This document shows, piece after piece, positions 14,764 through 30,748 of a stretch of DNA of 32,000 bases. The DNA lies in NCBI RefSeq assembly GCF_000146505.1, contig NC_017448.1, positions 1,260,001-1,292,000 on the forward strand, read 5' to 3'. The translations under genes and the position numbers were made by a program. The DNA is from Fibrobacter succinogenes subsp. succinogenes S85. Lineage in GTDB: Bacteria > Fibrobacterota > Fibrobacteria > Fibrobacterales > Fibrobacteraceae. The first letter of the stretch is position 1, and each line of letters begins with the position of its first letter. The notes beneath the pieces were generated by a model. The model did not search any database. It saw only the letters and a list, made by a program, of their open reading frames with translations, and had not been told where the DNA came from.

Positions 14764-17448
14764 ATGGCAAAGAGCATAGAAGAACAGGTCGAGGATTGGT
14801 GCAAAAACCAACTAGAAAACTACTTTACCAAAACAGAGAGCATCAACTCAGAAATCGACAAAGCTCTTAAAACTGCTCCCAGCAAAAAAGGCGGTTCGGG
14901 CCAAAACCTTCCCGATATCAAATGCTTTGTATCTGTTGGTTTCAGAAATATCCCTGTCATGATTGAATGCAAAGGAACTAAAGGTGATTTCGCCAAAACA
15001 GACGAAAACGGATTAATATCCAATACAAATAAAAAAGGAGAAACAGATTATACCGCCATTACAAAATACGCCGTTAATGGAGCTATTCACTATGCAAAAT
15101 CAATTCTCGATTTTACTGAAACATATAAAGAAACAATTGCCATTGGAGTAAATGGCTATAAACAAGATAACGACTTGCAACTAGAAATAGGTGTTTACTA
15201 TTTATCAAAAGACAATCTCGCAATACCTAAGAAAGTTGGAGATTTCTCAGACCTGAGTTTCCTAAAAAAGAAAAACTTGAAAGAATTCTTTGAAAAAATC
15301 GACGAACTTAAACTGACGTTAGAAGAGATAGAAAGCAGAAAACTTGCTCTCGAAGATGAAATCGAAACCAAATTGAAGCGTCTAAACCAAACAATGCATG
15401 ACGATTTAAGTATCACAGTCAAATCAAGAGTGATGCTCATCGTTGGACTAATTATGGCGGGGCTTGGCGTTGAAGATGTTTCTGAAGGTCTTAAAGTTGA
15501 AGAATTAAAGGGAGAATTAGGTCCAAAATCGAATGATGCTCAAAAAATCATCAATAAGGTAGAAGACTTTTTACGGATGAAAAATCTTCCTGAAGAAAAA
15601 CGTGAAGCTATAATGCACGAGCTTTCAAATGTATTCAAAAATGAGGATCTTTACAAACCGAAGAATGGAGAAAGCAAACTGAGAAAAGTTTACGTTATCG
15701 TCCATAAGGATATCCTACCATATCTCACATCTGATTTGCCCAATATTGATTTTACAGGAAGGCTTTTCAACGTTCTCAATGATTGGGTCGATGTTCCTGA
15801 TGGTGCCGAAAATGATGTTGTTCTGACCCCTCGATATGTAACAGAATTGATGGCAAAACTTACTGAAGTCAATATGAACAGTTATGTTTGGGATTATGCT
15901 ACCGGTTCTGCTGGTTTCTTAATTTCAGCGATGCATTTAATGATCGCAGATGCAAAAAACAAGATAAAGAGCCCTGAAGAACTACGAAAAACAATCGCAA
16001 AAATTAAAGCAGAAAAACTATTAGGCATTGAGAAACTTCCTGAAATTTACATTCTCGCTGTTCTGAATATGATTTTGATGGGTGACGGATCGTCAAACAT
16101 TATCAATGGAGATTCAACACAATTTGATGGGAAATATAAACAAGGAAAAATGAAAGACAAAGAATTTCCGGCAAATGTGTTCCTGTTGAATCCGCCCTAT
16201 TCTGCCCCCGGCAAAGGATTAAATTTTGTAGAGAAAGCTCTTTCGAAGATGAAAAGTGGTAAAGCAGCTGTTCTAATTCAAGAGAATGCTGGGAGTACAC
16301 AAGGTGACGGTTACACAAAAAAAATTTTGAACAAAAATACCTTAATTGCATCCATACACATGAGTACTGATTTGTTTATCGGCAAATCAAGCGTGCAAAC
16401 AGCTATTTACGTTTTTGATGTAGGTATTCCTCATGATACTGAAAAACTTGTAAAGTTCATAGATTTTTCAAATGACGGTTACGCTAGACAAAATCGTAAA
16501 AAGTCTAGTCAAAGTGTAAATCTAAAAGACGCCGATAATGCAAAAGAACGCTACGCAGAACTCGTGAATCTAGTGGTTCGAGGTAAAGGAAAAGACGATA
16601 AAAATCTAAACTACTACAAAGACTGTTATGTAGAAGACTATATAACTAGTGAAGGAAATGATTGGACATATAGTCAGCACAAGAAAATAGACATTAAGCC
16701 TACAGAGAATGATTTCAAAAAAATTATCAAAGAATACATGGCTTGGCAAATCAGCAATCTTATAAGAAATGAAGACATTTATCCATGGACAAATAAATCC
16801 CCAGAGCAAAGCAATTGCATTCTTTCTAAAAAAGAACGTGATTGTATTCAAATGAAGAACGCAACATTCAAAGCAATTACCATTGGATCCTTATTTGATA
16901 TCCATCCAACCAAAGCATACAAAGCAACAAATAAGGATTTATTTAAGGAAAAAGGCAAAGTTCCCGTTGTAGCCAATTCCTCTGTAGATAATGGTATTGG
17001 CGGATGGACAAACCTAAAAGCAACAGAAAAAGGCAACAAGGTAGTATTTAGCGATACCACAACATCTGATTCTATATTTTATCAACCCAATGATTTTGTG
17101 GGTTATCCCCATGTCCAAGGACTATACCCATATTGTAACAAATGGGATGAAAACAGCTTATTGTATTTTATTACTTGTTTTAGAAAAAGTGCTTCAGGAT
17201 TATTTAATTACGGAAATAAGTTTACTAGGAAAAATGCTCTAAAAATGAAAGTTTTTCTTCCCGAAAAAAATAAGGAAGATATAGATTTCAGTTTTATGGA
17301 AACTTTCATTTCTGCACAAAAGAAACTCATTATTCAAAAATTGTCTTGTTGGCTAGAACAACAAAAAATCAATAACGAAATATACATAATAGAGAAAGAG
17401 ATTCCTCAAGACACACTTTCCATGATTGCGGAAAAGAAACATCATTAG
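14764..17448 (+). CDS. Single-polypeptide restriction-modification enzyme: N-terminal PD-ExK nuclease, gamma-class N6-adenine methyltransferase, C-terminal HsdS-like TRD (Type IIG/IIB-like)
   Basis: Nuclease motif ...GGSGQNLPD(51)IK...VMIE(68)CK(70)G. Methylase motif I VWDYATGSAGFL and motif IV NPPY (nt 16189..16200). The C-terminal ~200 aa (FKAITIGSLFDIHPTKAYK...VPVVANSSVDNGIGGW...FSDTTT...) resembles one specificity-subunit target-recognition domain. A hand-counted 60-nt sample is 32% GC, against 52% in valS. Confidence 0.8.
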   Translation: MAKSIEEQVEDWCKNQLENYFTKTESINSEIDKALKTAPSKKGGSGQNLPDIKCFVSVGFRNIPVMIECKGTKGDFAKTDENGLISNTNKKGETDYTAITKYAVNGAIHYAKSILDFTETYKETIAIGVNGYKQDNDLQLEIGVYYLSKDNLAIPKKVGDFSDLSFLKKKNLKEFFEKIDELKLTLEEIESRKLALEDEIETKLKRLNQTMHDDLSITVKSRVMLIVGLIMAGLGVEDVSEGLKVEELKGELGPKSNDAQKIINKVEDFLRMKNLPEEKREAIMHELSNVFKNEDLYKPKNGESKLRKVYVIVHKDILPYLTSDLPNIDFTGRLFNVLNDWVDVPDGAENDVVLTPRYVTELMAKLTEVNMNSYVWDYATGSAGFLISAMHLMIADAKNKIKSPEELRKTIAKIKAEKLLGIEKLPEIYILAVLNMILMGDGSSNIINGDSTQFDGKYKQGKMKDKEFPANVFLLNPPYSAPGKGLNFVEKALSKMKSGKAAVLIQENAGSTQGDGYTKKILNKNTLIASIHMSTDLFIGKSSVQTAIYVFDVGIPHDTEKLVKFIDFSNDGYARQNRKKSSQSVNLKDADNAKERYAELVNLVVRGKGKDDKNLNYYKDCYVEDYITSEGNDWTYSQHKKIDIKPTENDFKKIIKEYMAWQISNLIRNEDIYPWTNKSPEQSNCILSKKERDCIQMKNATFKAITIGSLFDIHPTKAYKATNKDLFKEKGKVPVVANSSVDNGIGGWTNLKATEKGNKVVFSDTTTSDSIFYQPNDFVGYPHVQGLYPYCNKWDENSLLYFITCFRKSASGLFNYGNKFTRKNALKMKVFLPEKNKEDIDFSFMETFISAQKKLIIQKLSCWLEQQKINNEIYIIEKEIPQDTLSMIAEKKHH

Positions 17449-20756: not shown

Positions 20757-22298
20757 ATGCATTTGAAGAGTTGTGGATTATCACTGTTTGCACTCGCTGC
20801 AGCATCATTTACGTTTACCGCATGTACCGATTCCAATCCAAGCACGCCATTCGCAAACACGCCTGTCGCAGGCCCCACAGAATCAAGCTCTTCAAGCGAC
20901 GGCATTCCTACCTCCAGCGAAAACCTTTCTAGCTCAGAAATTTTCGCATCAAGTTCTAGCAGCGCGCAGTCCCCTATTATACAAGCCGGATTCCAGACCT
21001 GGCGCGGGACCGACAAAGCACAACAAATCATAACCGGTTACGATGCAGGAACAGGAACTTCTGGCTACTGGTACGAAGTCAACGATTCTGCGTTTAACGG
21101 CGCATCAAAAGTTATTTGGGTCGCAGCAGCTTCCGAGCAATGCGAAGGCATTTGCGGAACATTTGTTCTGGATAGAGCAAACATGACCTACAACCCGTTC
21201 GCAGCAGTCGCATTCGATTTAGCGGGCAAAAATGCACAAGGCGAGCTCGTAGCTATTGATGCGACAGACATGGGAGGCATTTGCATTACCTACTCCTCCG
21301 ATTTCGCCCCGACTCTGGAACTTTCACTTGGCGAAGCACAAAACGCCATCTACGAATACGCACTCCCTATCAAAAGTCTCAGAAAAACAGCAACACCCGA
21401 AACATTCAACATCAAGTGGTCTGAATTCCTACAGCCCGCTTGGGCGAAAAACAAAATCACAAGCGAAGAAGCCATAAAGAAACTCGTTTCTATTCAATTC
21501 AAAGTTCAAGCAACAACCGGCAGCGAATCCAGATTCGACATTATAGAAGTCGGCAGTTACGGGAATTGCACATACACACCGCCACCGACACCACCCATTG
21601 ACCAAAACCCAGATTCCGATCCGAACCCGAACTTGCCCAAGACTTCACCGTTTGAAACCTGGTATGGTAGCCTCGGAGATTATCGAATCATAACCGGCTA
21701 CGATGCAGGAACAGAAACATCCGGATACTGGTTCACTTACGGAGACGACCCTATCGCCGGAGCATCTTATATTGTTTGGCCTGTAGAAACAGACTATATA
21801 CCAGGCGAAAACGATTGGATGGACCCCATCATAGACCATTGCGAAGGAATTTGCGGAACAATCGAATTTAACAAAGGAAAAATGACCGAAAGGAGTCCTT
21901 TTATCGGGCTAGGTTTCAACATTGCCGGAGAAAAAAGTCTAGACGACGATATATATACGGGTGAACCGGTTGATGCATCCGCTATGGGCGGCGTTTGCGT
22001 CACCTACACCTCCAACAACGACATAGACCTCATATTAGGGCTCGGCGCAAAAGAGGAAGAATACGATTACAACCTTCCCACCAAAGTACTCCCAAAGAGT
22101 CAAACACCTATGACCAAGTACGTTGCATGGGCAGATTTCAAACAACCGAGCGAAGGAAACGGAAAAAAGATTTCCGGTGAAGGAGCCGCAAAAATCCTAA
22201 CCATGATTAAATTCGAGATACCTGGGGAACACGGCACGCAAGCATCTGTCAACATCAAGTCCGTTGGGCCGTACAACGGTGGCGATTGCCATCCGTAA
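20757..22298 (+). CDS. Lipoprotein with Ser-rich tether and two copies of an unrecognised ~200-aa four-Cys module (paralog 1)
   Basis: Lipobox LAAASFTFTAC|T and a GGAGG RBS. Ser-rich linker. Each module has ...(T/E)W.G...I.TGYD.GT.TSGYW..., C.GICGT, MGG(I/V)C(I/V)TY.S, a K/W...F.QP motif, and a terminal G..(C). Confidence 0.8.
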   Translation: MHLKSCGLSLFALAAASFTFTACTDSNPSTPFANTPVAGPTESSSSSDGIPTSSENLSSSEIFASSSSSAQSPIIQAGFQTWRGTDKAQQIITGYDAGTGTSGYWYEVNDSAFNGASKVIWVAAASEQCEGICGTFVLDRANMTYNPFAAVAFDLAGKNAQGELVAIDATDMGGICITYSSDFAPTLELSLGEAQNAIYEYALPIKSLRKTATPETFNIKWSEFLQPAWAKNKITSEEAIKKLVSIQFKVQATTGSESRFDIIEVGSYGNCTYTPPPTPPIDQNPDSDPNPNLPKTSPFETWYGSLGDYRIITGYDAGTETSGYWFTYGDDPIAGASYIVWPVETDYIPGENDWMDPIIDHCEGICGTIEFNKGKMTERSPFIGLGFNIAGEKSLDDDIYTGEPVDASAMGGVCVTYTSNNDIDLILGLGAKEEEYDYNLPTKVLPKSQTPMTKYVAWADFKQPSEGNGKKISGEGAAKILTMIKFEIPGEHGTQASVNIKSVGPYNGGDCHP

Positions 22299-22315
22299 AG
22301 CAGTAGGAGCGCCAT

Positions 22316-23944
22316 ATGCTTTGCTCGCAAAAATTTTTCAAGCCGTATATATTAGCAGCCATCGCAGTTTCTGCAACCTTTGTCGCTTGCGGAGACTCCG
22401 ATACCGTGGCGCCTCCGCCCTCGTTTGAATCAAGCTCTTCTAACGGCGGTATTTTTGCATCGTCCAGTTCCGTTATAATTGCAGGTTCTTCAAGCGATTT
22501 CGCCGTTTCGTCAAGTAGCGTAGCGCTATCCAGTTCGCAGATTGCTCCATCCAGTTCCAGCGCACAGCCGCCCATAATCAAGACCAAAGAGGCTATTTGC
22601 GGTGACATGTGGTGCGCTCGTAGAGACCGAGATTCCCGCGTCAATACCGGTTTCGATGCAGGCTTCGAGACTTCCGGTTATTGGTTTGATGAATCCGACA
22701 CGGAATATCAAACGGAAGGTTCCACAATCACTTGGGAGGGCTTCGACAACAGAGATTGCACCTTCGCTGACGACTGCTTTGCAGATATGATTGAGCAATG
22801 CGGCGGCATTTGCGTAACACAAACGCTCGTAAAGCGAGACCAAGTAAACAATCTATACGCGAGTATCGGATTTAACGTTGCCGGTGTTGACGAACAAAAT
22901 AAACGTATCGTCACCGACATTTCTGAACTAGAAGGACTCTGCGTTGTTTACACCTCCGACACAGAGGTTTATCTCGAAATGCACATAGACGATGTTTCGA
23001 ATAAATATCTCGCCCTCGATTTTCCTCGCGCCACGCTTCCCCAAGCATCCACCCCCGTCATGAAAGATTTCACTTGGAAAGATTTCAAGCAAGACGGAAC
23101 AGGCAATATGAGGATATCCGGTGAAGACGCCGCAAAGAGTCTAGTCTCGCTCATGTTCACATTAAAGGGCAGTCAAGATGCATCCAATCACTTCAACATC
23201 ATGTCCATAGGTCGTTACGGAACATGCAGAACAGTCGCCAACGTAGATTCCGTTGCACAGCTCTCTAAAAGTCCATTCCGAACCTGGCATGGTTCTAGAG
23301 ATTTCGAAATCAAAACCGGTTACGACAACGGGAGTAAAACATCGGGTATATGGTTCAGCATTTTCGATGACCAGCAAAATGGCGCTTCATCAATAACCTG
23401 GCCGATAGACCCACCTTATGACAACTTCAGCGAGGACTCCTTTGACAGTTGGAGAATGGAGCTTATAGAAGAATGTAAGGGAATTTGCGCGGAATACTAT
23501 CTTAACAAATTCCAATTCCCCGACGAAAAAGAGCCATTTGTAGGAATTGGCATCATTATAGCTGGAGAAGAAATCAATCCCGAGAGCAATATATCCTACC
23601 TGACAACAATAGATGCAACAAACATGGGCGGGGTTTGCGTTTCGTACACATCCGACAATGACATGTATATACAAATGGGACTCGGCGATAAGAAAGACGA
23701 AGAACTGAATTACGCGTTGCCAATCGTTTCGATTCCCGCAAGCAAAGAAGTCAACACGGTGTACGTGAAATGGTCGCAATTCCAGCAGCCCTCATGGTAT
23801 GATGGAGACAAAAAGATTACAGGAGCAGAAGCCGCAAAATCACTAGCCGCAGTTCATTTCCTAGCGCACGGTCAAAGCGGTTCTGCAGGCAAATTCAACA
23901 TCATGTCTATCGGCCCGTACAACAGAGGCTACTGCTACCCATAA
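22316..23944 (+). CDS. Lipoprotein, paralog 2 of the two-module family
   Basis: Lipobox SATFVAC|G and an AGGAG RBS, 17 nt after paralog 1. A very Ser-rich tether is followed by two modules with CGGICVT/CKGICAE, EGLCVVYTSD/MGGVCVSYTSD, and W.DFKQ/WSQFQQPSWY. Confidence 0.8.
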   Translation: MLCSQKFFKPYILAAIAVSATFVACGDSDTVAPPPSFESSSSNGGIFASSSSVIIAGSSSDFAVSSSSVALSSSQIAPSSSSAQPPIIKTKEAICGDMWCARRDRDSRVNTGFDAGFETSGYWFDESDTEYQTEGSTITWEGFDNRDCTFADDCFADMIEQCGGICVTQTLVKRDQVNNLYASIGFNVAGVDEQNKRIVTDISELEGLCVVYTSDTEVYLEMHIDDVSNKYLALDFPRATLPQASTPVMKDFTWKDFKQDGTGNMRISGEDAAKSLVSLMFTLKGSQDASNHFNIMSIGRYGTCRTVANVDSVAQLSKSPFRTWHGSRDFEIKTGYDNGSKTSGIWFSIFDDQQNGASSITWPIDPPYDNFSEDSFDSWRMELIEECKGICAEYYLNKFQFPDEKEPFVGIGIIIAGEEINPESNISYLTTIDATNMGGVCVSYTSDNDMYIQMGLGDKKDEELNYALPIVSIPASKEVNTVYVKWSQFQQPSWYDGDKKITGAEAAKSLAAVHFLAHGQSGSAGKFNIMSIGPYNRGYCYP

Positions 23945-23967
23945 ACGACACTATTCAACTTGAAAAC

Positions 23968-23996
23968 AGGCACTCCACATGGAGTGCCTTTTTTTT
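23968..23996 (+). terminator. Rho-independent terminator after paralog 2
   Basis: AGGCACTCC-acat-GGAGTGCCT (perfect 9-bp stem) followed by T7. Confidence 0.85.
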
Positions 23997-24290
23997 GCGC
24001 TTTTCCAGCGTCATATTTTTGAAAGCAAAAAATTACATTACCATTTTTGGCTCAAAAAGCATGTATCATAAAGCACACCAATAGCACTACAACTCGTATT
24101 ATATAGAACAACATTCTTGATATTTCAGCACAAGTTCACGTATTATATTGAATAACCCTTTTGTATTAAAAAGAAATTCAGTATAACAAACAAAGTAACA
24201 AATTCATCTTTTGTACAAAAATTAATTTTTCTTTTCAATTTTAACTTATATATATTTTCAGTACCAACTTAAACGAATAGGAGGAACCTT

Positions 24291-25886
24291 ATGAACAGAA
24301 AACAGAGAAAATCATTCGGCAAGGCATCGCTTTTCGCGTTGATTGCCGCATCACTTCCATTTACAGCCTGTAGCTACTTGGATGACATCATGCCCCCGGA
24401 ACACGACCCGGGCCATGACCACCCGATAATCAGAAGCTCGTCAAGCAATCTCGTTGAATCATCTTCATCCACCGTACGTCCCCACTCATCTTTTGAGACC
24501 TGGTACGGCTATGAAGGTATTCCGCAAATTGAAACCGGATTTGGCAACGAAACAGAATCATACGGTTACTGGCTCTCTAAAAATGATGAAAGCGAAGGCG
24601 GACTTTCTCAAATCTTCTGGCCAGCCGAAAAGGGCAACGATTACAGCGACGACGCGATGGACAATATTATTGAGCACTGCGGCGGTCTTTGCGGTACATA
24701 CTTGCTCAATAAAGGTTCTATGACCTACAATCCGTTTGTTAGCGTCGGTTTCAACCTGGTTGGCGAAAGGGTCTTCGGTGACCCGACACCAGCACCTGCA
24801 AACGCCACAAGCATGGGCGGTGTCTGCGTCACTTATGCATCTGACATGATAGTTTCGCTTGAAATGGGCCTCACCGATGAAATGGAAGAAAACGTCGGTT
24901 ACGCCGTTCCGAGCGCAACCCTCCCCAAGAGCGCTACAGGCACGACAAAGTTCCTCTCCTGGTCTGATTTCAAGCAGCCCTCCTGGTATAAGGGTTCATT
25001 CAAGATGCCCGGCGAGAAAGCAGCCCAGCAGCTCGTTTCTCTCAGATTCAAATTCCAGGGAACAAGCGGTTCTCTCGGCAGCTTCAACATTGCAGCGGTT
25101 GGCCCATACGATGGCTGCAAGGACTCCATGTTCCCGGTCTACAAGCCAACGCCGACAATCCCTGACCCGGTGGACCCGCCTGATCCGATTGATCCTCCGG
25201 CACCGACAACAAACGATTTCGAAACCTGGTTCGGTTACAACAGCATTTACCAGATTCAAACCGGTTACGATAACGGCTCCGCAACATCTGGCTACTGGTT
25301 CAGCTACGGCGACGACGTTGATGGCGGCGCTTCAAAAATCGTTTGGCCAGTAGAACTCGGCAACGAATACAGCGATGACGCCATTGATCCGGTTATTGAC
25401 TACTGCGGCGGCCTCTGCGGCACAGCAATTCTCTCCAAGGGAACTCTGACTTACAGTCCGTACGTTGGCGTAGGTTTTGGTTTGGCTGGTGAATCGAAGT
25501 ATGGCGACCTCGAACCAGCCGATGCCGCAGGCATGGGTGGCGTATGCATCTCGTACATTTCCGATGTCGCACCGGCCCTTGAAATGAGCCTCGGCGAAGA
25601 AATGGACGCAGCCATCGGTTACGCATTACCGGCAGCATTCCTCCCGAAGAGCACCGTCGGCACGACAAAGTTCCTCAAATGGTCCGACTTCAAGCAGCCC
25701 TCCTGGTACAAGGGCGCCACCAAGATCACTGGCGAACAGGCTTCTAGAATGCTTGCATCCCTCAAATTCAAGATGCAGGCAGCTCCGGGTTCCTACAACT
25801 TCAACATTCAAGCCATTGGCCCGTATAACGGAGGCACATGCAGTAACACCTTCACAGCGGGTTCCAACAAGAAGAAACGCCACTAA
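24291..25886 (+). CDS. Lipoprotein, paralog 3 of the two-module family
   Basis: Lipobox SLPFTAC|S and an AGGAGG RBS. The two modules are visibly more similar to each other than those of paralogs 1 and 2 (ETW(Y/F)GY...TG(F/Y)..., CGGLCGT, MGGVC(V/I).Y.SD, KF L.WSDFKQPSWYKG, FNI.A(V/I)GPY.G). They are joined by a Pro-rich PDPVDPPDPIDPPAP linker. Confidence 0.8.
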   Translation: MNRKQRKSFGKASLFALIAASLPFTACSYLDDIMPPEHDPGHDHPIIRSSSSNLVESSSSTVRPHSSFETWYGYEGIPQIETGFGNETESYGYWLSKNDESEGGLSQIFWPAEKGNDYSDDAMDNIIEHCGGLCGTYLLNKGSMTYNPFVSVGFNLVGERVFGDPTPAPANATSMGGVCVTYASDMIVSLEMGLTDEMEENVGYAVPSATLPKSATGTTKFLSWSDFKQPSWYKGSFKMPGEKAAQQLVSLRFKFQGTSGSLGSFNIAAVGPYDGCKDSMFPVYKPTPTIPDPVDPPDPIDPPAPTTNDFETWFGYNSIYQIQTGYDNGSATSGYWFSYGDDVDGGASKIVWPVELGNEYSDDAIDPVIDYCGGLCGTAILSKGTLTYSPYVGVGFGLAGESKYGDLEPADAAGMGGVCISYISDVAPALEMSLGEEMDAAIGYALPAAFLPKSTVGTTKFLKWSDFKQPSWYKGATKITGEQASRMLASLKFKMQAAPGSYNFNIQAIGPYNGGTCSNTFTAGSNKKKRH

Positions 25887-25915
25887 AGAAAGTCCCATAG
25901 ACATCTCCTGATATA

Positions 25916-25955
25916 AAAAAATCCGGCCTCGCATGAGGTCGGATTTTCAATTTCA
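25916..25955. repeat. Left copy of the 40-bp perfect direct repeat (bidirectional terminator hairpin)
   Basis: AAAAAATCCGGCCTCGCATGAGGTCGGATTTTCAATTTCA is identical to 29195..29234. It contains the TCCGGCCTC-gcat-GAGGTCGGA hairpin, flanked by an A-run and a T-run. Confidence 0.95.
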
Positions 25956-25972
25956 CCATGAATGAAATTTTT

Positions 25973-26812
25973 TTATTTAGACAATTCAATTTCACGACAT
26001 TTACAACCCGAATAAAGGCCTGAAAAATCAGGATCTATATTCAATTTAGCATCCTCTAAAACCTGCTTTAATTCCTTTTCGTATTTTGATTCGGCTTTCT
26101 TATCTTTTTCACTATTTTCATCATCTTCAAACGAATCAAGCCTCGGATCAAAAGTCATACGTTTGATTAAGTTATTAAAAGATTTTTTATAGGAAACAAA
26201 AACAACTTTATTTTTATCAAAGTCTTTAATTTTTTTTGAGTTTTTATCCCAAACAATAAACAATCTCAATTCTTGCTCGTAACTAAAAGCTTTTCGCTTC
26301 AGAGACATTAAGCTAACATACGAACGTTCAAGTTTATCTTCAGTAAAATTTCGCTTTTTATGAACATTTTTTATTTCGTGTTCAAATTCATATTTAGCAG
26401 CAGCAAAATATATTCTAGCACTATGTTTATCAGCAAAAGAATTTAAAGCATCCAAAAGTTCATACAAATCAAATACTACACGAATATACGGTTCATCGGA
26501 AGTTTTGCTTCTACTCCAAAAAGCTTCAGCATTTTCACTTGAGGAACTTGTAAAGCAAAGACACGCCATGTTCGGTAAAGCAACGGACTCTTTAGGCTTC
26601 CCCTCCTTATTCTTCACAACCTTAACATCGTAGAAACGTTTTTCAAAAGGATCCTCCCACAATTCTGGCGACACAAAAGCAATTTGTCGATTTTTCAACA
26701 TTTCACAAACGCGGGAAAAAGGCATATAACGACAAACTTTAGGATTTTCCCAGTCAAGAGACAATTCACCAACGAAATGAACGTTATTCCAAATAAAAGG
26801 GGATTTCTTCAT
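25973..26812 (-). CDS. DUF2971-like protein (function unknown)
   Basis: Remembered DUF2971 pattern: an early helix plus F.SP..(W/F).DPFE (here QIAFVSPELWEDPFE), a mid C..(F)T....E....W..(Y/S) block (ACLCFTSSSSENAEAFWS), and a late K...(F/W)..E.E.R (KRKAFSYEQELRLF). I prefer the ATG at 26812, which has AAGGTG 8 nt upstream. The ORF-track start at 26821 is a GTG. Confidence 0.65.
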   Translation of the reverse strand: MKKSPFIWNNVHFVGELSLDWENPKVCRYMPFSRVCEMLKNRQIAFVSPELWEDPFEKRFYDVKVVKNKEGKPKESVALPNMACLCFTSSSSENAEAFWSRSKTSDEPYIRVVFDLYELLDALNSFADKHSARIYFAAAKYEFEHEIKNVHKKRNFTEDKLERSYVSLMSLKRKAFSYEQELRLFIVWDKNSKKIKDFDKNKVVFVSYKKSFNNLIKRMTFDPRLDSFEDDENSEKDKKAESKYEKELKQVLEDAKLNIDPDFSGLYSGCKCREIELSK

Positions 26813-26836
26813 TACTAACACCTTGTGTTTATAAAA

Positions 26837-28582
26837 TCAATTGAACAGGGCGTTAATTTCATCTGCAGTGAATTGACCTTCTGCAAACATATCCGTTATT
26901 TTGGTTCCCTGTTTCCATTTGCTTGCAATGTTCCACTTGGAAATATCACCATGGAAGGAAGATTCTTGAAACATACTTTCCATATCGGTAACATTGGAAA
27001 CATTCCACTTGGAAATATCACCGCTAAAGGTTGTTTTCATAAACATCTTCTTCATATCCTTTACATGGGACACCTCCCATTGAGACAAATCCGAAGATAC
27101 GTTACATCCCCAAAACATATAACTCATATCTTCTGCCTTGGAAACATTCCATTTACTGACATCGCCACTGAATTTCGATGCAGAGAACATCGCACTCATA
27201 TCTTTTACATTAGCAACATTCCAGTTGGAAACATTACCAGAAAACGTTGTCCCATGGAACATACTTTCCATATTCGTTACACTTGAAACATCCCACTTTG
27301 AAACATCACCATCAAAATTTTCGCATTTATCAAACATTCTTTCCATATTTGTGACTTTTGACACATTCCATTGACTGATGTCACCATTGAATTTGGAGCA
27401 AGCAAACATGCTACTCATATCCTTCACATTCGAAACATTCCAGTTCGAAATATCACCCGTAAATGAGGATCCGTAAAACATCTTCATCATATTCTCAACA
27501 CGAGAAACATTCCATGTAGAAATATTCCCATTAAATTTTGATTCAAAGAACAAACTGCGCATATTGGTTACATTAGAAACATTCCAATTGCTGATATTAC
27601 CATTAAAAATAGAGCCAGAAAAGCATCCTTCCATATCGGTAACTTTGGACGTATTCCACTTACTAATGTCCCCACTAAATTTGGACTTACGGAACATTCT
27701 ATACATTCTCGTTACATTAGACACATCCCAGTTGCTGATATCACCATTAAATTCGGACTCTTCAAACATGTTACTCATATTCGTCACACTAGAAACATCC
27801 CACTTGCTGATATCACCTTTGAATTTCGAACCATCCGCGAAATTCTGACCAAACATATTACTCATATCAGTCACACTTGATACAACCCAGTTGCTAATAT
27901 CTCCATTGAATTTGGAGCTAGCAAACATGTCACTCATATTCGTTACCTTTGAGACATTCCATTTACTGATATCGCCATTAAACTCCGACTCTCCAAACAT
28001 GTTATTCATATTCGTCACATTTGAAACATTCCACTTGCTAATATCTCCATTGAATTTGGAGCTAGCAAACATGTTACTCATATCCGTCACATTTGAAACT
28101 TTCCATTTGCTGATATCGCCATTAAATTCGGAGTGTTTAAACATTCCACTCATATTCGTCACATTTGAGACATTCCACTTACTGATATCACCATTGAATT
28201 CCGATTCACTATCGGAAAAATCATCGTCAACGCAACCAAACATATTACTCATATCAGTCACACTTGATACATCCCAATTGCTAATATTTCCATTGAATTC
28301 GGAGCCAGCAAACATGCTACTCATATCCTTCACATTCGAAACATTCCATTTACTGATATCGCCATTAAACTCCGACTCTTTAAACAGATAGCTCATATCT
28401 GTAATTTGAGATACATCGATATAATTCAAATCACAATTCGGCCCTTTACTTTCAATCGCCCTTTTGATCAACGATTGAAGTTCTTCCTTTCTTTTAGGAT
28501 GGTTTGCCAATCCAGCAATCATGCTATCAAAATCGTCCATGCGATCACGTTTTTTAAATAATCTGCTAAAAAAAGACATCAT
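26837..28582 (-). CDS. BspA-type leucine-rich repeat protein (DUF285 repeats), no signal peptide
   Basis: About 20 tandem 24-25-aa repeats of F..S.FNGDIS.WNVS.VT.M..MF. The N-terminus MMSFFSRLFKKRDRMDDFDSMIAGLANHPKRKEELQSLIKRAI is hydrophilic, with no Sec or lipoprotein signal. Confidence 0.85.
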   Translation of the reverse strand: MMSFFSRLFKKRDRMDDFDSMIAGLANHPKRKEELQSLIKRAIESKGPNCDLNYIDVSQITDMSYLFKESEFNGDISKWNVSNVKDMSSMFAGSEFNGNISNWDVSSVTDMSNMFGCVDDDFSDSESEFNGDISKWNVSNVTNMSGMFKHSEFNGDISKWKVSNVTDMSNMFASSKFNGDISKWNVSNVTNMNNMFGESEFNGDISKWNVSKVTNMSDMFASSKFNGDISNWVVSSVTDMSNMFGQNFADGSKFKGDISKWDVSSVTNMSNMFEESEFNGDISNWDVSNVTRMYRMFRKSKFSGDISKWNTSKVTDMEGCFSGSIFNGNISNWNVSNVTNMRSLFFESKFNGNISTWNVSRVENMMKMFYGSSFTGDISNWNVSNVKDMSSMFACSKFNGDISQWNVSKVTNMERMFDKCENFDGDVSKWDVSSVTNMESMFHGTTFSGNVSNWNVANVKDMSAMFSASKFSGDVSKWNVSKAEDMSYMFWGCNVSSDLSQWEVSHVKDMKKMFMKTTFSGDISKWNVSNVTDMESMFQESSFHGDISKWNIASKWKQGTKITDMFAEGQFTADEINALFN

Positions 28583-28595
28583 AAGCCCCTAGTAA

Positions 28596-29105
28596 TTAAC
28601 GTTTATTCTGCGAATCAAATTTTTCGGCTAATTTTTTTTGTCTAATAATATATTCTCTACCTTTTGTATTTTGACATCCAAAACACATTTTCTTAGAGGA
28701 TTTTTTTCGTTCAACATGAGCGCCATCCACATACTCATACGAGAAAGTTTTTATTGGATTTTTGTCCTCCAAAAAAAATTTATGGCAGCAACAGCACAAA
28801 GCATACGATTGCAAACAATCATTACACAATGGCTTACCTAAAGGGCTCTTAACAGCAGAAAGCCCCTGTTCTTCATTAAATGTAGCCTCACAACGAAAAC
28901 AGGTAAACGTTTTCAATCCCGCAATACGTTTTGCTTCGGCGGCTTCCCTCAAAGCTCTAGCAGAGTCTTCAGCAGCTTGACGCTGAAGTTCTTCCATCCG
29001 TTCGCGATGTTCTTCTTCTTCAATTTTTTCGTTATAACAATCCTGACATAGCCCATCAGATAAATAACCTTCTTCCCGAACTCCACACCTTCTACACAGA
29101 GCCAT
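28596..29105 (-). CDS. Cys-rich zinc-ribbon / coiled-coil protein (169 aa, function unknown)
   Basis: N-terminal CRRC-x14-CQDC, followed by an acidic/charged helix EEEEHRERMEELQRQAAEDSARALREAAEAKR. The C-terminal part has CFRC-x22-CNDC, then a CCCCH cluster and CFGC. GAGGA RBS. It lies 13 nt upstream of the LRR gene. Confidence 0.65.
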   Translation of the reverse strand: MALCRRCGVREEGYLSDGLCQDCYNEKIEEEEHRERMEELQRQAAEDSARALREAAEAKRIAGLKTFTCFRCEATFNEEQGLSAVKSPLGKPLCNDCLQSYALCCCCHKFFLEDKNPIKTFSYEYVDGAHVERKKSSKKMCFGCQNTKGREYIIRQKKLAEKFDSQNKR

Positions 29106-29194
29106 AATATTTCCTCGTTTAAAGAATGAATTTATACTAACATGCTACATAGTAAGCAGCAATAAGCATAATTGAACTGTTAAAATATACTAAT

Positions 29195-29234
29195 AAAAAA
29201 TCCGGCCTCGCATGAGGTCGGATTTTCAATTTCA
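29195..29234. repeat. Right copy of the 40-bp perfect direct repeat (terminator of the purF-like gene)
   Basis: Identical to 25916..25955. A separate 14-bp perfect palindrome GCGGGCATGCCCGC lies at 29244..29257, between this repeat and the purF stop. Confidence 0.95.
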
Positions 29235-29275
29235 ATCAAACGTGCGGGCATGCCCGCGACATTTCGAATTGCGGA

Positions 29276-30748
29276 TTATTCCTTATCCTTTTCCTTATCG
29301 TGGCAATGGCACGGGCAATGATAGCAGTCACCCGTTTCGGCGTAGTCCTTGCCAGTCCAGCAGTAGGTGCAAAGGTCTTCTTCCGGGAGGCCGATAGCCT
29401 GAATCAAGTCGTCAATGCGCTGGAACGCAAGCGACGTGAGGTTCAGCTTCTTGCGGATGTATTCGACCATGTCCTTGTACGGCTGGCCATTCGGATCGGT
29501 GTACTTGTCCAAATCGGCGTTTTCGCCTTCCTGGTCGCGAATGTAACGGCGCGTGATGAGGTCGTATTCATTCTTGGAGCGAGAGAAGTTGATGAACTTG
29601 CACGGATAAACGAGCGGCGGGCAAGCGATACGCATGTGCGTTTCCTTGCAGCCCATTGAATAAAGTTTCTGGGCCTGCTTACCGAGCTGCGTTCCGCGAA
29701 CGATGGAGTCATCGCAGAAAACGAGGCGACGGTCCTTGATGAGACCCGGAATCGGGATGAGCTTCATCGAGGCGACATGTTCACGCTGGCGCTGGTCCTG
29801 CGGCATAAAGGAACGAGCCCAAGTCGGCGTGTACTTCACGAACGGGCGAGCAAACTTGATGCCGGCTTCGTGTGCATAGCCCAAGGCGTGAGACGTACCG
29901 GAGTCCGGAATACCGCAAGCGGCATCGGCTTCGGTCGGGGTGCGCTTCGCAAGAGCGGAACCGCAACGGTAACGGGTCATTTCCACGTTACGACCTTCGT
30001 AACTGGAGGCCGGGTAACCGTAATACACCCAGAGGAACGAACAAATTGCCATCTTCTTGCGCGGCGGAACAAGCGTCGTATCGCCATCCGGCGTGAGCTC
30101 GACCACTTCACCCGGACCAAGATCACGGACGTATTCGTAACCGAGGTTCGGAAGTGCGCAGCTTTCTTGCAAGGCGATCATGGCGCCATCCTTCTTACCA
30201 AGGATTACAGCCGTACGGCCCCACTTGTCACGGCACGCATAAAAACGCCCCGCGCTATCCATAATCAGCACGGAGCAACTTCCCTTCACCTTGTCCTGAA
30301 CGTACTTGAGACCGTCAATAATTGAATCCTGCGTAGCGATAAGCGCTGAAACAACTTCGGTCGGACCGACCATGCCACTCGTTGTAGAGAACTGGAGCTG
30401 CATGCAGTTGTTGCGGAAAAGTTCGTTCTTAATATCTTCGATGTTCGTGATGAGGCCAACAGTCACAATCGCGAACGTTCCCAGCTTGGAGGTCATGACG
30501 AGCGGCTGCGGGTCCGTGTCAGAGATGACGCCTAAGCCAACCTTGCCGGAAAAATGTGTTAAATCGTGTTCAAACTTACTGCGGAACGGAGTGTTCTGGA
30601 TGTTATGAATCGAGCGATGGAAAACACCATCCGATTTCAAAACAGCCATACCGCCGCGGTGAGTGCCAAGGTGAGAATGGTAGTCGGTTCCGTAAAAGAG
30701 ATCGCAAACGCAATCTTCTTTGGAAATAACACCACAAAAGCCGCCCAT
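29276..30748 (-). CDS. purF: Amidophosphoribosyltransferase-like class II (Ntn) glutamine amidotransferase
   Basis: The MGGFCGVIS N-terminus carries the Cys nucleophile. PRPP-binding loop VFCDDSIVRGTQ. The C-terminal C.YCWTG.DY is typical of PurF. I prefer the start at the second Met (30748) over the ORF-track start at 30787. Confidence 0.72.
   Translation of the reverse strand: MGGFCGVISKEDCVCDLFYGTDYHSHLGTHRGGMAVLKSDGVFHRSIHNIQNTPFRSKFEHDLTHFSGKVGLGVISDTDPQPLVMTSKLGTFAIVTVGLITNIEDIKNELFRNNCMQLQFSTTSGMVGPTEVVSALIATQDSIIDGLKYVQDKVKGSCSVLIMDSAGRFYACRDKWGRTAVILGKKDGAMIALQESCALPNLGYEYVRDLGPGEVVELTPDGDTTLVPPRKKMAICSFLWVYYGYPASSYEGRNVEMTRYRCGSALAKRTPTEADAACGIPDSGTSHALGYAHEAGIKFARPFVKYTPTWARSFMPQDQRQREHVASMKLIPIPGLIKDRRLVFCDDSIVRGTQLGKQAQKLYSMGCKETHMRIACPPLVYPCKFINFSRSKNEYDLITRRYIRDQEGENADLDKYTDPNGQPYKDMVEYIRKKLNLTSLAFQRIDDLIQAIGLPEEDLCTYCWTGKDYAETGDCYHCPCHCHDKEKDKE

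Follow-up and report, generated by a model that had tools for sequence, protein, structure and literature searches.

A 32,000-nt stretch of DNA from Fibrobacter succinogenes subsp. succinogenes S85 (NC_017448.1, positions 1,260,001 to 1,292,000; hereafter the window) contains a horizontally acquired cassette of AT-rich foreign DNA, placed at the terminator of a purF-like gene. We consider it fairly probable that this cassette combines two units that are separable from each other: 1) gene 3, a PDC-S31/DUF2971-family gene that functions by itself; and 2) a gene pair coding for a Zn-ribbon protein (ZnR) and a DUF285 repeat protein. The two-unit reading is preferred to that of one new three-gene system because gene 3 is likely to be stand-alone, while the ZnR-DUF285 pair, judging from its sequence relatives, is probably a separately conserved and undescribed two-protein module restricted to Fibrobacter.

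All three genes are carried on a discrete insertion of 3239 bp (~3.2 kb) bounded at each end by a perfect 40-nt direct repeat, termed R (Table 1). The two copies are perfectly identical, against a chance expectation of 0 matches. R is the purF-like gene's own intrinsic terminator, duplicated on both sides of the cassette; its right copy begins 17 nt past the gene 3 stop codon and, with its adjoining sequence included in the fold (25908-25960), gives a hairpin (dG -18.4, z -3.75). A related Fibrobacter MAG (L028) displays the empty site, in which purF is followed by a single R and then by the downstream gene, and in which the cassette-internal 89-nt 5' stretch is also missing. Profile searches recovered no recombinase gene inside the 3.2-kb cassette, there is no tRNA gene near it, and an Rfam search over 25500-29600 detected no RNA family. 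An integron-cassette interpretation of R was dropped because R is only 40 nt long and no integrase is present; R is a terminator hairpin of that length and not an attC-type site. One Logan contig (L006) shows the order gene 3, single R, ZnR, which resembles a circular or tandem junction; this interpretation was rejected because other Logan contigs end exactly 30 nt into R, i.e. at a k=31 graph branch, and because none of the S85-type contigs has an excised empty site. A search around the islands that carry ZnR-DUF285 in other lineages revealed no long direct repeats at their flanks. The filled and empty sites with their 40-nt terminator duplication should be of use in studying the mobility of small cassettes that lack a recombinase in Fibrobacter.

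The three ORFs of the cassette (25973-29105) lie on the minus strand in a single orientation, separated by gaps of 13 nt and 24 nt (the second being 15 nt if gene 3 begins at its alternative GTG), and each start is preceded by a purine-rich RBS-like motif. The GC content of the cassette is 35.4% (genes 0.33-0.38, GC3 0.26-0.41), as against 0.54 in the purF-like gene, 0.52 in the 531-aa neighbour and 0.50 in the window after removal of its two AT-rich islands. The original prediction had described an AT-rich set of closely spaced, co-oriented minus-strand genes, each with its own RBS, and had known of no named system of such composition; all of this agrees with what we find, namely a foreign, operon-like cassette that is not a named system. 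The literature holds no report on the S85 locus tags of the cassette. In the proposed arrangement all three genes would be transcribed as a single operon from the 5' region listed in Table 1; because a consensus promoter scan did not flag that region, its assignment as the promoter is one that we infer. Among the F. succinogenes strains seen, the three genes are present or missing as one block, and S85 and its very close relatives L020-L022 all carry intact copies of the three ORFs.

Table 1. Features of the cassette and its junctions (positions in the window)
Feature	Position	Strand	Description
R, right copy	25916..25955	-	right junction; acts as terminator of the cassette operon
Gene 3, Fisuc_0704/FSU_1141	25973..26812	-	279 aa from ATG; PDC-S31/DUF2971-family predicted ADP-ribosyltransferase-like protein
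DUF285/PARCEL repeat protein	26837..28582	-	581 aa: N-cap ~65 aa, 20 x 24-aa repeats, C-cap ~40 aa
Hypervariable repeat core of DUF285 gene	26960..28387	-	65.7% nucleotide identity between S85 and L020
ZnR, FSU_1143	28596..29105	-	169 aa: N-terminal Zn ribbon, long charged helix, double Zn-ribbon beta domain, C-terminal helix
Cassette-internal 5' region, 89 nt	29106..29194	-	presumed operon promoter and 5'UTR; possible extended -10 TGTTAGTAT; RBS GAGGA
R, left copy	29195..29234	-	terminator hairpin and U-tract of upstream purF-like gene; left junction of the insertion

Gene 3, for which a GTG at 26821 would yield an alternative product of 282 aa, matches the PADLOC HMM PDC-S31 (PDLC04993) with E=8.9e-27 over residues 26-250, and the same HMM is matched by 14 of 14 members of its family (best 5e-50). 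Its score with the Pfam DUF2971 model (PF11185) is 19.5 bits (E=0.0026), short of the 22-bit gathering threshold, and 9 of the 14 relatives likewise show weak matches, all of them sub-threshold. Homology to DUF2971 is nevertheless solid, because hhalign with an annotated Klebsiella DUF2971 protein returns 99.8% probability (E=2.9e-29), aligning the motifs VSPxLWxDPxE, a Tyr and KRxAFxxExExR. The initial assignment to a DUF2971-like family thus stands, in agreement with the NCBI name 'DUF2971 domain-containing protein'. Two accompanying statements do not: the view of DUF2971 as a family with no assigned function is outdated, the family having been predicted to be DarT-like or ART-like with a Tyr and an ExE motif (PMC12522546), and the claim that no enzymatic motif is visible is wrong, as Y135, Y141 and E179-x-E181 (ExE) are invariant in the alignment of the gene 3 family.

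Foldseek searches with the AF2 model of gene 3 (pLDDT 76) recovered DarT as all of the top seven matches (among them 7yk3, 7omw/x/v/y and 8baq), which represent three organisms; ART domains of pertussis-like toxin and PARP come next. The match scores are marginal, with a best E of 1.2e-3 and TM values of 0.29-0.44 (large helical inserts lower the TM-score), and a search of PDB sequences with the gene 3 profile gave chance matches to PUF60 only and no DarT. Relatives detected by tblastn occur on 190 plasmids, with E-values reaching 3e-11; one relative resides on an ICE-like element beside ParB-HEPN, and others adjoin a kinase similar to PD-T4-6/mad6 or a helicase of the XPB type. GenBank phages yielded no match to gene 3. 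A sensor-effector or defence module had been suggested for the cassette as a whole, and of this suggestion a defence-type role remains plausible for gene 3, given its PDC-S31 similarity, its DarT-like predicted fold and the plasmid, ICE-like and defence-gene surroundings of its homologs, whereas the coupling of three genes is not supported. It is likely that gene 3 encodes a stand-alone anti-phage enzyme of the DarT-like ADP-ribosyltransferase type.

ZnR contains 14 Cys residues in six CxxC knuckles, which form three conserved CxxC...CxxC pairs flanking the charged helix (AF2 pLDDT 78.5). This bears out the expectation of at least three CxxC pairs around a charged coiled coil; the 'CCCCH cluster' proposed alongside is not conserved, with relatives showing only a CxxC (CDFC). 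No family in Pfam, NCBIfam, PADLOC or PHROG matches ZnR, no relatives were found in IMG/VR or among GenBank phages, and a word-indexed profile search added none. Fold searches returned generic eS26-type Zn ribbons only (E>=0.07) and were uninformative. Identification as a zinc-binding anti-sigma factor was dropped, as the ribbons are of the Cys4 type rather than HxxxCxxC and no sigma gene lies closer than 13 kb; a TRIM-like RING/B-box was dropped too, since the best fold matches of the predicted structure are simple Zn ribbons. The family is tiny, and all contigs on which it was found, whether metagenomic or genomic, resemble Fibrobacter. In relatives the ZnR module has one of several different parts attached at its C-terminal end, namely membrane domains (polytopic in seven proteins), beta-helix repeats, or DUF285.

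Sampling of ZnR covers about five independent lineages. Wherever a locus extends far enough, a DUF285 ortholog comes ~20 nt after the ZnR homolog; the two genes stand side by side in four or more loci and are fused in two other proteins, which represent distinct architectures. In the first (L033/P0055) Cys4 Zn ribbons are joined directly to DUF285 with no TM segment, and in the second (P0061) a TM helix intervenes between the two. The DUF285 partner in a pig-gut lineage has a variant that ends in a ribosomal bL12 C-terminal domain, and the ZnR-DUF285 island of this lineage includes a gene of the ART clan (DUF3990). Outside F. succinogenes, the pair is trailed by tightly coupled small genes, among them a 115-aa gene that overlaps the DUF285 stop codon (ATGA) and a gene for a recurrent 'WRTENWGT' protein. 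Since the neighbours of the pair change from lineage to lineage, its partnership with gene 3 is not obligate; gene 3 is in fact missing from all ZnR-DUF285 loci and fusions outside F. succinogenes (at least four other lineages). Conversely, gene 3 relatives lack ZnR and DUF285 in every lineage outside F. succinogenes; no conserved partner accompanies the homologs P0014, P0015 and P0021 or those on Klebsiella plasmids. The trio itself was seen beyond S85 only in L020-L022, so that the refuting condition set in the original prediction, no co-occurrence of the three genes outside this strain, essentially applies above strain level. The original prediction of one three-component system is therefore not supported, as each unit is found apart from the other, and neither is an obligate three-gene sensor-adaptor-effector system.

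Within the F. succinogenes lineage the three genes may still be functionally coupled, which is conceivable because they share one promoter region and one terminator, have gaps of only 13 and 24 nt, and are inherited as a block. In the fullest version of such coupling the DUF285 solenoid would sense a phage component, ZnR would relay the signal or oligomerise, and a gated DUF2971-like ART would be the effector. Besides the operon structure just described, this integrated defence system could explain how a lone DarT-like toxin, which needs control, is kept in check where no macrodomain antitoxin is encoded: no DarG gene is adjacent, gene 3 being bordered by the gene for the DUF285 protein and by a lipoprotein gene in convergent orientation. 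The tightly coupled small genes that trail the pair in other lineages are reminiscent of swappable effectors, and the fusions of the ZnR module to polytopic membrane domains point in the same direction, as does the presence of an ART-clan gene in the pig-gut island; the latter, however, is on the opposite strand. We regard the integrated system as unlikely, because both units occur without each other in the lineages listed above, the PADLOC family is a single-gene candidate, and Aristaios, a DUF2971 protein, functions as a single gene.

The DUF285 protein is matched by Pfam DUF285 (E=3.2e-202) and by the TIGR02167 PARCEL repeat (E=8e-76), and scores 377 bits with NF045896, below the cut-off of 500. 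Its repeats are W-anchored, and the count of about 20 that had been predicted is exact. The N-cap, starting with MSFFSRLFKK, and the C-cap are both conserved, and orthologous caps are present in the DUF285 partners of all ZnR homologs. A sequence scan confirmed the predicted lack of a signal peptide and lipobox and also found no hydrophobic N-terminus or TM segment (maximal Kyte-Doolittle hydropathy over 15 aa of 0.51 for the whole protein and -0.10 within residues 1-40); the S85 ZnR likewise lacks a signal peptide, lipobox or TM segment. Together with the TM-less fusion to Cys4 ribbons and the bL12 C-terminal domain of the pig-gut partner, this suggests a cytoplasmic location. The alternative is that the pair forms an envelope or surface-variation module, serving in adhesion or antigenic variation as in the PARCEL lipoproteins of mycoplasmas, with an unrecognised mode of anchoring or export and with gene 3 as an unrelated hitch-hiker. 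DUF285/PARCEL proteins are indeed best known as variable surface lipoproteins (PMC2996958), and hypervariability in repeat number and sequence is typical of surface proteins. The TM helix of P0061 and the seven polytopic ZnR relatives imply that some family members may place their repeats outside the cell, and the conserved N-terminus MSFFSxLFKK may contact the membrane because its hydrophobic moment is high. Against this stand the absence of any targeting signal in either S85 protein, the TM-less fusion, and the fact that the bL12 C-terminal domain is a cytoplasmic interaction domain, and we hold a surface module to be quite doubtful.

The repeat core is hypervariable (66% against 95-99% identity) beside near-identical ZnR genes and flanks. 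Between S85 and L020 its nucleotide identity is 65.7%, against 87-99% in the flanks and caps, and L020 and L022 differ in the core solely by a clean 72-nt indel, equivalent to one repeat. The gene also has dyad-symmetric DNA with repeat-shaped antisense ORFs. That the cassette has no cellular function at present and is either selfish PARCEL DNA or cargo in decay, its repeats varying only by tandem-repeat recombination, is highly improbable: PARCELs reportedly derive from the mobilome and are readily shuffled within a genome (PMC2996958), the one-repeat indel resembles simple slippage, and the pig-gut lineage also holds a frameshifted 622-aa variant, but the ORFs are intact in S85 and L020-L022, the caps and ZnR Cys ligands are kept across lineages at 40-60% identity, and both modules are preserved in independent fusions.

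Returning to the two-unit reading, gene 3 would act as a PDC-S31/DUF2971 enzyme with a DarT-like ADP-ribosyltransferase core, most likely alone in the manner of Aristaios; upon phage infection it might abort the infection by transferring ADP-ribose from NAD+ to a protein or nucleic acid. ZnR, with its zinc ribbons and coiled coil, might dock on a DUF285 beta-solenoid, located in the cytoplasm or near the membrane, by way of the solenoid's conserved caps; the hypervariable repeat face of the solenoid would bind a fast-changing ligand. The hypervariability and the fusion partners are compatible with the DUF285 protein being an intracellular ligand sensor. A bolder proposal, to which we assign a low probability, is that ZnR-DUF285 is an unrecognised cytoplasmic hypervariable solenoid receptor of Fibrobacter with a constant Zn-ribbon/coiled-coil hub and interchangeable modules, in S85 sensing a product of a phage or mobile element and controlling the DarT-like enzyme. 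The interchangeable modules, associated by adjacency or fusion, may include DUF285 or beta-helix repeats, polytopic membrane domains, the bL12 C-terminal domain and neighbouring ART-type toxins. The literature contains no link of DUF285 to defence, the one apparent match being to DUF2859.

If gene 3 is active, it would be a rumen-bacterial addition to the emerging DUF2971/PDC-S31 single-gene ADP-ribosyltransferase defences, which have one tested member, Aristaios. The ZnR-DUF285 module is the more original part of the finding. 'Untargeted' PARCEL/DUF285 proteins have been without explanation since 2010; a fusion-backed Zn-ribbon partner, conserved caps, a hypervariable core and membrane or bL12 C-terminal fusions now offer handles on them, and the receptor proposal, if true, would give them a function.

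Among known systems, PDC-S31 is a single-gene 'phage defence candidate' (Payne et al., bioRxiv 10.1101/2024.01.29.577857), one of the PDC systems found by guilt-by-embedding. Gene 3 and all 14 aligned relatives match the HMM, and the relatives are stand-alone in mobile or defence contexts, whereas in S85 two unrelated genes belong to the operon that contains gene 3. Aristaios is a 316-aa DUF2971 protein of a Lactococcus plasmid and a validated single-gene abortive-infection (Abi) system (PMC11381338); it has in common with gene 3 the DUF2971 superfamily, a predicted ART fold and a location on mobile DNA. It differs in that the Pfam DUF2971 match of gene 3 is sub-threshold and that none of the 190 plasmids matched by tblastn is from Lactococcus, the presence of the Aristaios plasmid in the collection searched being unconfirmed. 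DarT, the DNA ADP-ribosyltransferase of DarTG, supplies the best fold matches of gene 3, which has an ExE-type motif, and DUF2971 has been placed beside DarT in the literature (PMC12522546); gene 3 departs from it in the lack of an adjacent DarG macrodomain antitoxin and of a PDB sequence match, and in its large helical inserts.

The PARCEL/DUF285 repeat proteins, above all the 'untargeted' category H (Röske et al. 2010, PMC2996958), resemble the S85 protein in their 24-aa W repeats, dyad-symmetric DNA, antisense ORFs, mobile AT-rich context and lack of a targeting signal, but the S85 protein additionally has conserved caps and a dedicated conserved Zn-ribbon partner (sometimes fused), neither of which features in that description. 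From the BspA-like/PARCEL surface lipoproteins it differs in having no signal peptide, lipobox or membrane anchor. Avs/STAND NLR-like anti-phage proteins are repeat-sensor immune proteins with swappable modules. The ZnR-DUF285 pair has neither an NTPase nor a recognisable effector domain, and we do not claim membership for it; by analogy, it might be likened to them as a hypervariable solenoid set on a constant module with alternative C-terminal parts.

The three co-oriented genes of the cassette, each with a purine-rich RBS-like motif upstream of its start codon, are separated by gaps of 13 and 24 nt on the minus strand, much as the original prediction had described. Their AT-richness is likewise borne out: the cassette has a GC content of 35.4% (GC3 0.26-0.41), as against 54% in the purF-like gene upstream, 52% in the 531-aa lipoprotein gene downstream, and about 50% in the window without its two AT-rich islands (source record CP001792.1). 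The cassette is bracketed by two copies of a 40-nt direct repeat, R, for which the chance expectation is 0. At the RNA level R forms a strong hairpin with a U-tract behind it (dG -18.4, z -3.75), which makes it the duplicated terminator of the purF-like gene. In the Fibrobacter MAG L028 the purF-like gene (94% nucleotide identity) is followed by one R and then directly by the downstream lipoprotein homolog. This arrangement is the empty site of the cassette, which comprises 3239 bp of unique DNA and one additional R. Closely related F. succinogenes strains of metagenomic origin (L020-L022) have the same site filled, with the left R differing at 3 of 40 positions. The filled and empty states could reflect either insertion or a precise R-by-R deletion; profile matches recovered no recombinase inside the cassette, and no tRNA gene was found near it. 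The contig L006 (Logan SRR5194755) shows the order DUF285 3' end, gene 3, single R, ZnR and DUF285 5' end, which is the junction predicted for a circular or tandem form. As other contigs end 30 nt inside the repeat, however, the likeliest explanation is an assembly path at k=31 that runs through R.

Features of the cassette, its surroundings and related loci
Feature	Sequence	Position	Strand	Description
Type IIG enzyme gene	window	14764-17448	+	894 aa
Tandem lipoprotein genes	window	20757-25886	+	513, 542, 531 aa
R, right copy	window	25916-25955		40 nt, AAAAAATCCGGCCTCGCATGAGGTCGGATTTTCAATTTCA, perfect match to other copy
Gene 3 (Fisuc_0704/FSU_1141)	window	within 25973-29105	-	279 aa, or 282 aa from upstream GTG
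DUF285 protein gene	window	within 25973-29105	-	581 aa
ZnR (FSU_1143)	window	within 25973-29105	-	169 aa, Cys-rich
ORFs antisense to DUF285 gene	window	26825-27286; 27891-28391	+	regular repeats
MSFFS(K/R)LFKK	window	28548-28582		DUF285 N-terminus
R, left copy	window	29195-29234		40 nt, AAAAAATCCGGCCTCGCATGAGGTCGGATTTTCAATTTCA, perfect match to other copy
Junction-like order	L006	1400-1660		single R between gene 3 and ZnR
FRG remnant	L012	1451-1603		50 aa
Duplication	L015	9085-9139; 9240-9294		55 nt, perfect, 155 nt apart
'WRTENWGT' family	L016	8342-8749
'WRTENWGT' family	L044	11753-12061
'WRTENWGT' family	L033	4879-5748		within 289-aa ORF
DUF3791, 79-aa and DUF3990 genes	L044	12062-13009	-	convergent
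Double DUF285 unit with bL12 domain	L046	1452-3563		likewise in L045, L047-L051

The other AT-rich island of the window (GC 0.35), located about 9 kb from the cassette, encodes a Type IIG restriction-modification enzyme (PADLOC REase_MTase_IIG, E=3e-187; Pfam N6_Mtase), indicating that the region has received more than one foreign defence-type insertion. The paralogous tandem lipoproteins share an FTAC/FVAC lipobox, 35-40% identity and an internal duplication, and match no Pfam family; only about 2.3 kb separates R from valS in L028, so that their copy number varies among strains.

Gene 3, whose product already bears the NCBI name DUF2971, is an additional member of PDC-S31 (E=9e-27), a recognized family of single-gene candidates in PADLOC that the 14 aligned relatives of gene 3 all match as well; PDC families are phage-defence candidates only. 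Its Pfam DUF2971 score of 19.5 bits falls slightly under the 22-bit threshold, and when its profile was compared with that of a DUF2971 protein annotated by PGAP on a Klebsiella plasmid, the probability was 99.8% (E=3e-29), with the VSPxLWxDPxE motif, a Tyr and the KRxAFxxExExR motif aligned. The top seven PDB matches of its AlphaFold model (pLDDT 76, pTM 0.78) are DarT DNA ADP-ribosyltransferases from three organisms, albeit with marginal scores (best E=1.2e-3), followed by pertussis-like toxin and PARP1 ART domains. These matches agree with the placement of DUF2971 in the ART superfamily beside DarT and AbiGi, with conserved Tyr and ExE (PMC12522546). Furthermore, Aristaios, a DUF2971 protein, has been experimentally validated as a single-gene abortive-infection system (PMC11381338). 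The earlier view of gene 3 as lacking an assigned function or enzymatic motif is thus superseded by its PDC-S31 match, putative DarT-like fold and family Tyr and ExE motifs, and we predict that it is an NAD+-using ART acting as a self-contained abortive-infection effector.

Gene 3 is independent of the other two genes. Relatives with 49% identity are located after an unrelated Fib_succ_major gene, in one case with an XPB-type helicase gene following; a 32%-identity relative adjoins a PD-T4-6/mad6-like kinase; those of Sphingopyxis lie in an ICE-like element, flanked by a relaxase on one side and a ParB-HEPN pair on the other; and a homolog occurs on 190 plasmids, the majority large conjugative Klebsiella plasmids. 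At all of these loci, ZnR and DUF285 are missing from the neighbourhood.

The conserved unit is instead the pairing of ZnR with the DUF285 protein, along with fusions of the two. ZnR belongs to a small family (10 clusters in a word-indexed search; 1.8 billion proteins yielded 12 representatives at E<=1e-10) that appears limited to Fibrobacter-like contigs from rumen and pig gut, and it matches no model in Pfam, NCBIfam, PADLOC or PHROG. At every locus with sufficient sequence a DUF285 gene lies about 20 nt downstream of the ZnR homolog, and these partners share with the S85 protein the conserved ends, or caps, MSFFSxLFKK...NGPNCDLNFIDVS at the N-terminus and HGDxxKWNxAxKWKxGTxITxMF...EINALF at the C-terminus. 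Two independent fusions unite the modules in a single polypeptide: P0055 (contig L033, 682 aa), with a ZnR part 44% identical to that of S85 (E=7e-31), a DUF285 part (E=1e-51) and no TM segment, and P0061 (692 aa), in which a single TM helix separates the two modules. ZnR is a reusable N-terminal module, since it also precedes TM or beta-helix parts (P0053, P0054, P0056, P0057, P0059, P0062, P0074, P0063, P0067); seven of its relatives have 3-8 predicted TM helices and two have right-handed beta-helix repeats.

At these other ZnR-DUF285 loci, fusions included, gene 3 is absent and different genes take its place. A pig-gut lineage has a 102-aa gene followed by a convergent DUF3791/DUF3990 group, which in L044 lies in the same AT-rich island as the pair; DUF3990 is a member of the Pfam ART clan (PMC7955679). 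In another lineage the pair is preceded by an FRG/PDC-S15 gene and followed by genes for proteins of 115, 137 and 135 aa. The 102-aa and 135-aa proteins and the N-terminal portion of an L033 ORF with a DUF285-cap-like tail constitute one family (E=2e-23; 102-135 aa, 'WRTENWGT' motif), a recurrent neighbour of the pair in three lineages that is absent from S85 and matches nothing in Pfam or PADLOC. Directly upstream of ZnR in L012 is a remnant that differs by 3 substitutions from the C-terminal end of L015's FRG-domain protein (PADLOC PDC-S15), the remainder of the gene being replaced by an uncharacterized 246-aa gene, which points to gene turnover at that position. The duplication in L015, where the 135-aa gene is truncated relative to L016 and L017, may be real or else an assembly artefact. 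As the pair and gene 3 each occur apart in other lineages, an obligate three-gene system is not supported, and within the F. succinogenes lineage the integrated sensor-effector or defence module of the original prediction is unlikely.

ZnR is organized as a Zn ribbon, a charged coiled coil and a double Zn ribbon. Its six CxxC knuckles form three conserved CxxC...CxxC pairs flanking the long charged helix, in keeping with the pairs first noticed, but the supposed CCCCH cluster is plain CxxC in relatives. In the model (pLDDT 78.5), a knuckle at the N-terminus is followed by a helix (residues 21-62), a Zn domain rich in beta structure and, at the C-terminus, another helix; fold searches with it retrieved only generic Zn ribbons. 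The partner matches Pfam DUF285 (E=3e-202) and the TIGR02167 PARCEL repeat; as anticipated, it comprises 20 repeats, each 24 aa long, and lacks a hydrophobic N-terminus, lipobox or other export signal. Its repeats form a hypervariable core: S85 and L020 share 65.7% identity there, versus 97% in the N-cap, 98.7% in gene 3 and 95-99% in the flanks; one 72-nt repeat is the sole difference between L020 and L022; and pig-gut contigs whose ZnR is identical carry partners 622, 655 or 703 aa long. Variation is mainly at repeat positions 1, 3, 5, 15, 20, 21 and 24. The antisense ORFs reflect the dyad symmetry of PARCEL repeats rather than additional genes. At the end of the 703-aa pig-gut partner lies a C-terminal domain of ribosomal bL12 (E=3.5e-13 to PDB 1dd3). 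In L046 and its counterparts two cap-repeat-cap units precede this L7/L12 domain, and the 622-aa variant of L044 has a frameshift immediately ahead of it. The bL12 C-terminal domain is cytoplasmic and recruits translation GTPases.

This domain, the absence of export signals and the TM-free P0055 fusion all favour a soluble protein, and make it quite improbable that the pair is an envelope or surface-variation module, a role for which the P0061 TM helix, the seven polytopic ZnR relatives and the N-terminus of the DUF285 protein speak. The MSFFS(K/R)LFKK segment, kept in all stand-alone partners, has a hydrophobic moment in the top 1-6% of windows within each protein and is therefore a possible membrane-binding amphipathic helix. 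The same three features suggest that the pair, even if intracellular, is possibly membrane-proximal. We propose that the DUF285 solenoid is bound by ZnR and itself binds a fast-evolving ligand through its variable face.

The insertion boundaries, empty site and family assignments are clear, as are the pairing and fusions of ZnR with DUF285, the hypervariability and the separateness of gene 3, and the cassette is best explained as a small foreign islet in which two units, the pair and gene 3, share one operon in F. succinogenes without forming an obligate system. Across a sample of only about five lineages the neighbourhoods have a defence flavour, with PDC-S15 and PDC-S31 genes, a weak GmrSD-like match in L033, an ART-clan gene and the Type IIG enzyme. 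While gene 3 joins a family already recognized, the ZnR-DUF285 module is undescribed as far as the searchable literature goes, and it offers a first way to approach, through structure and genomics, the PARCEL proteins that were described as 'untargeted' in 2010.
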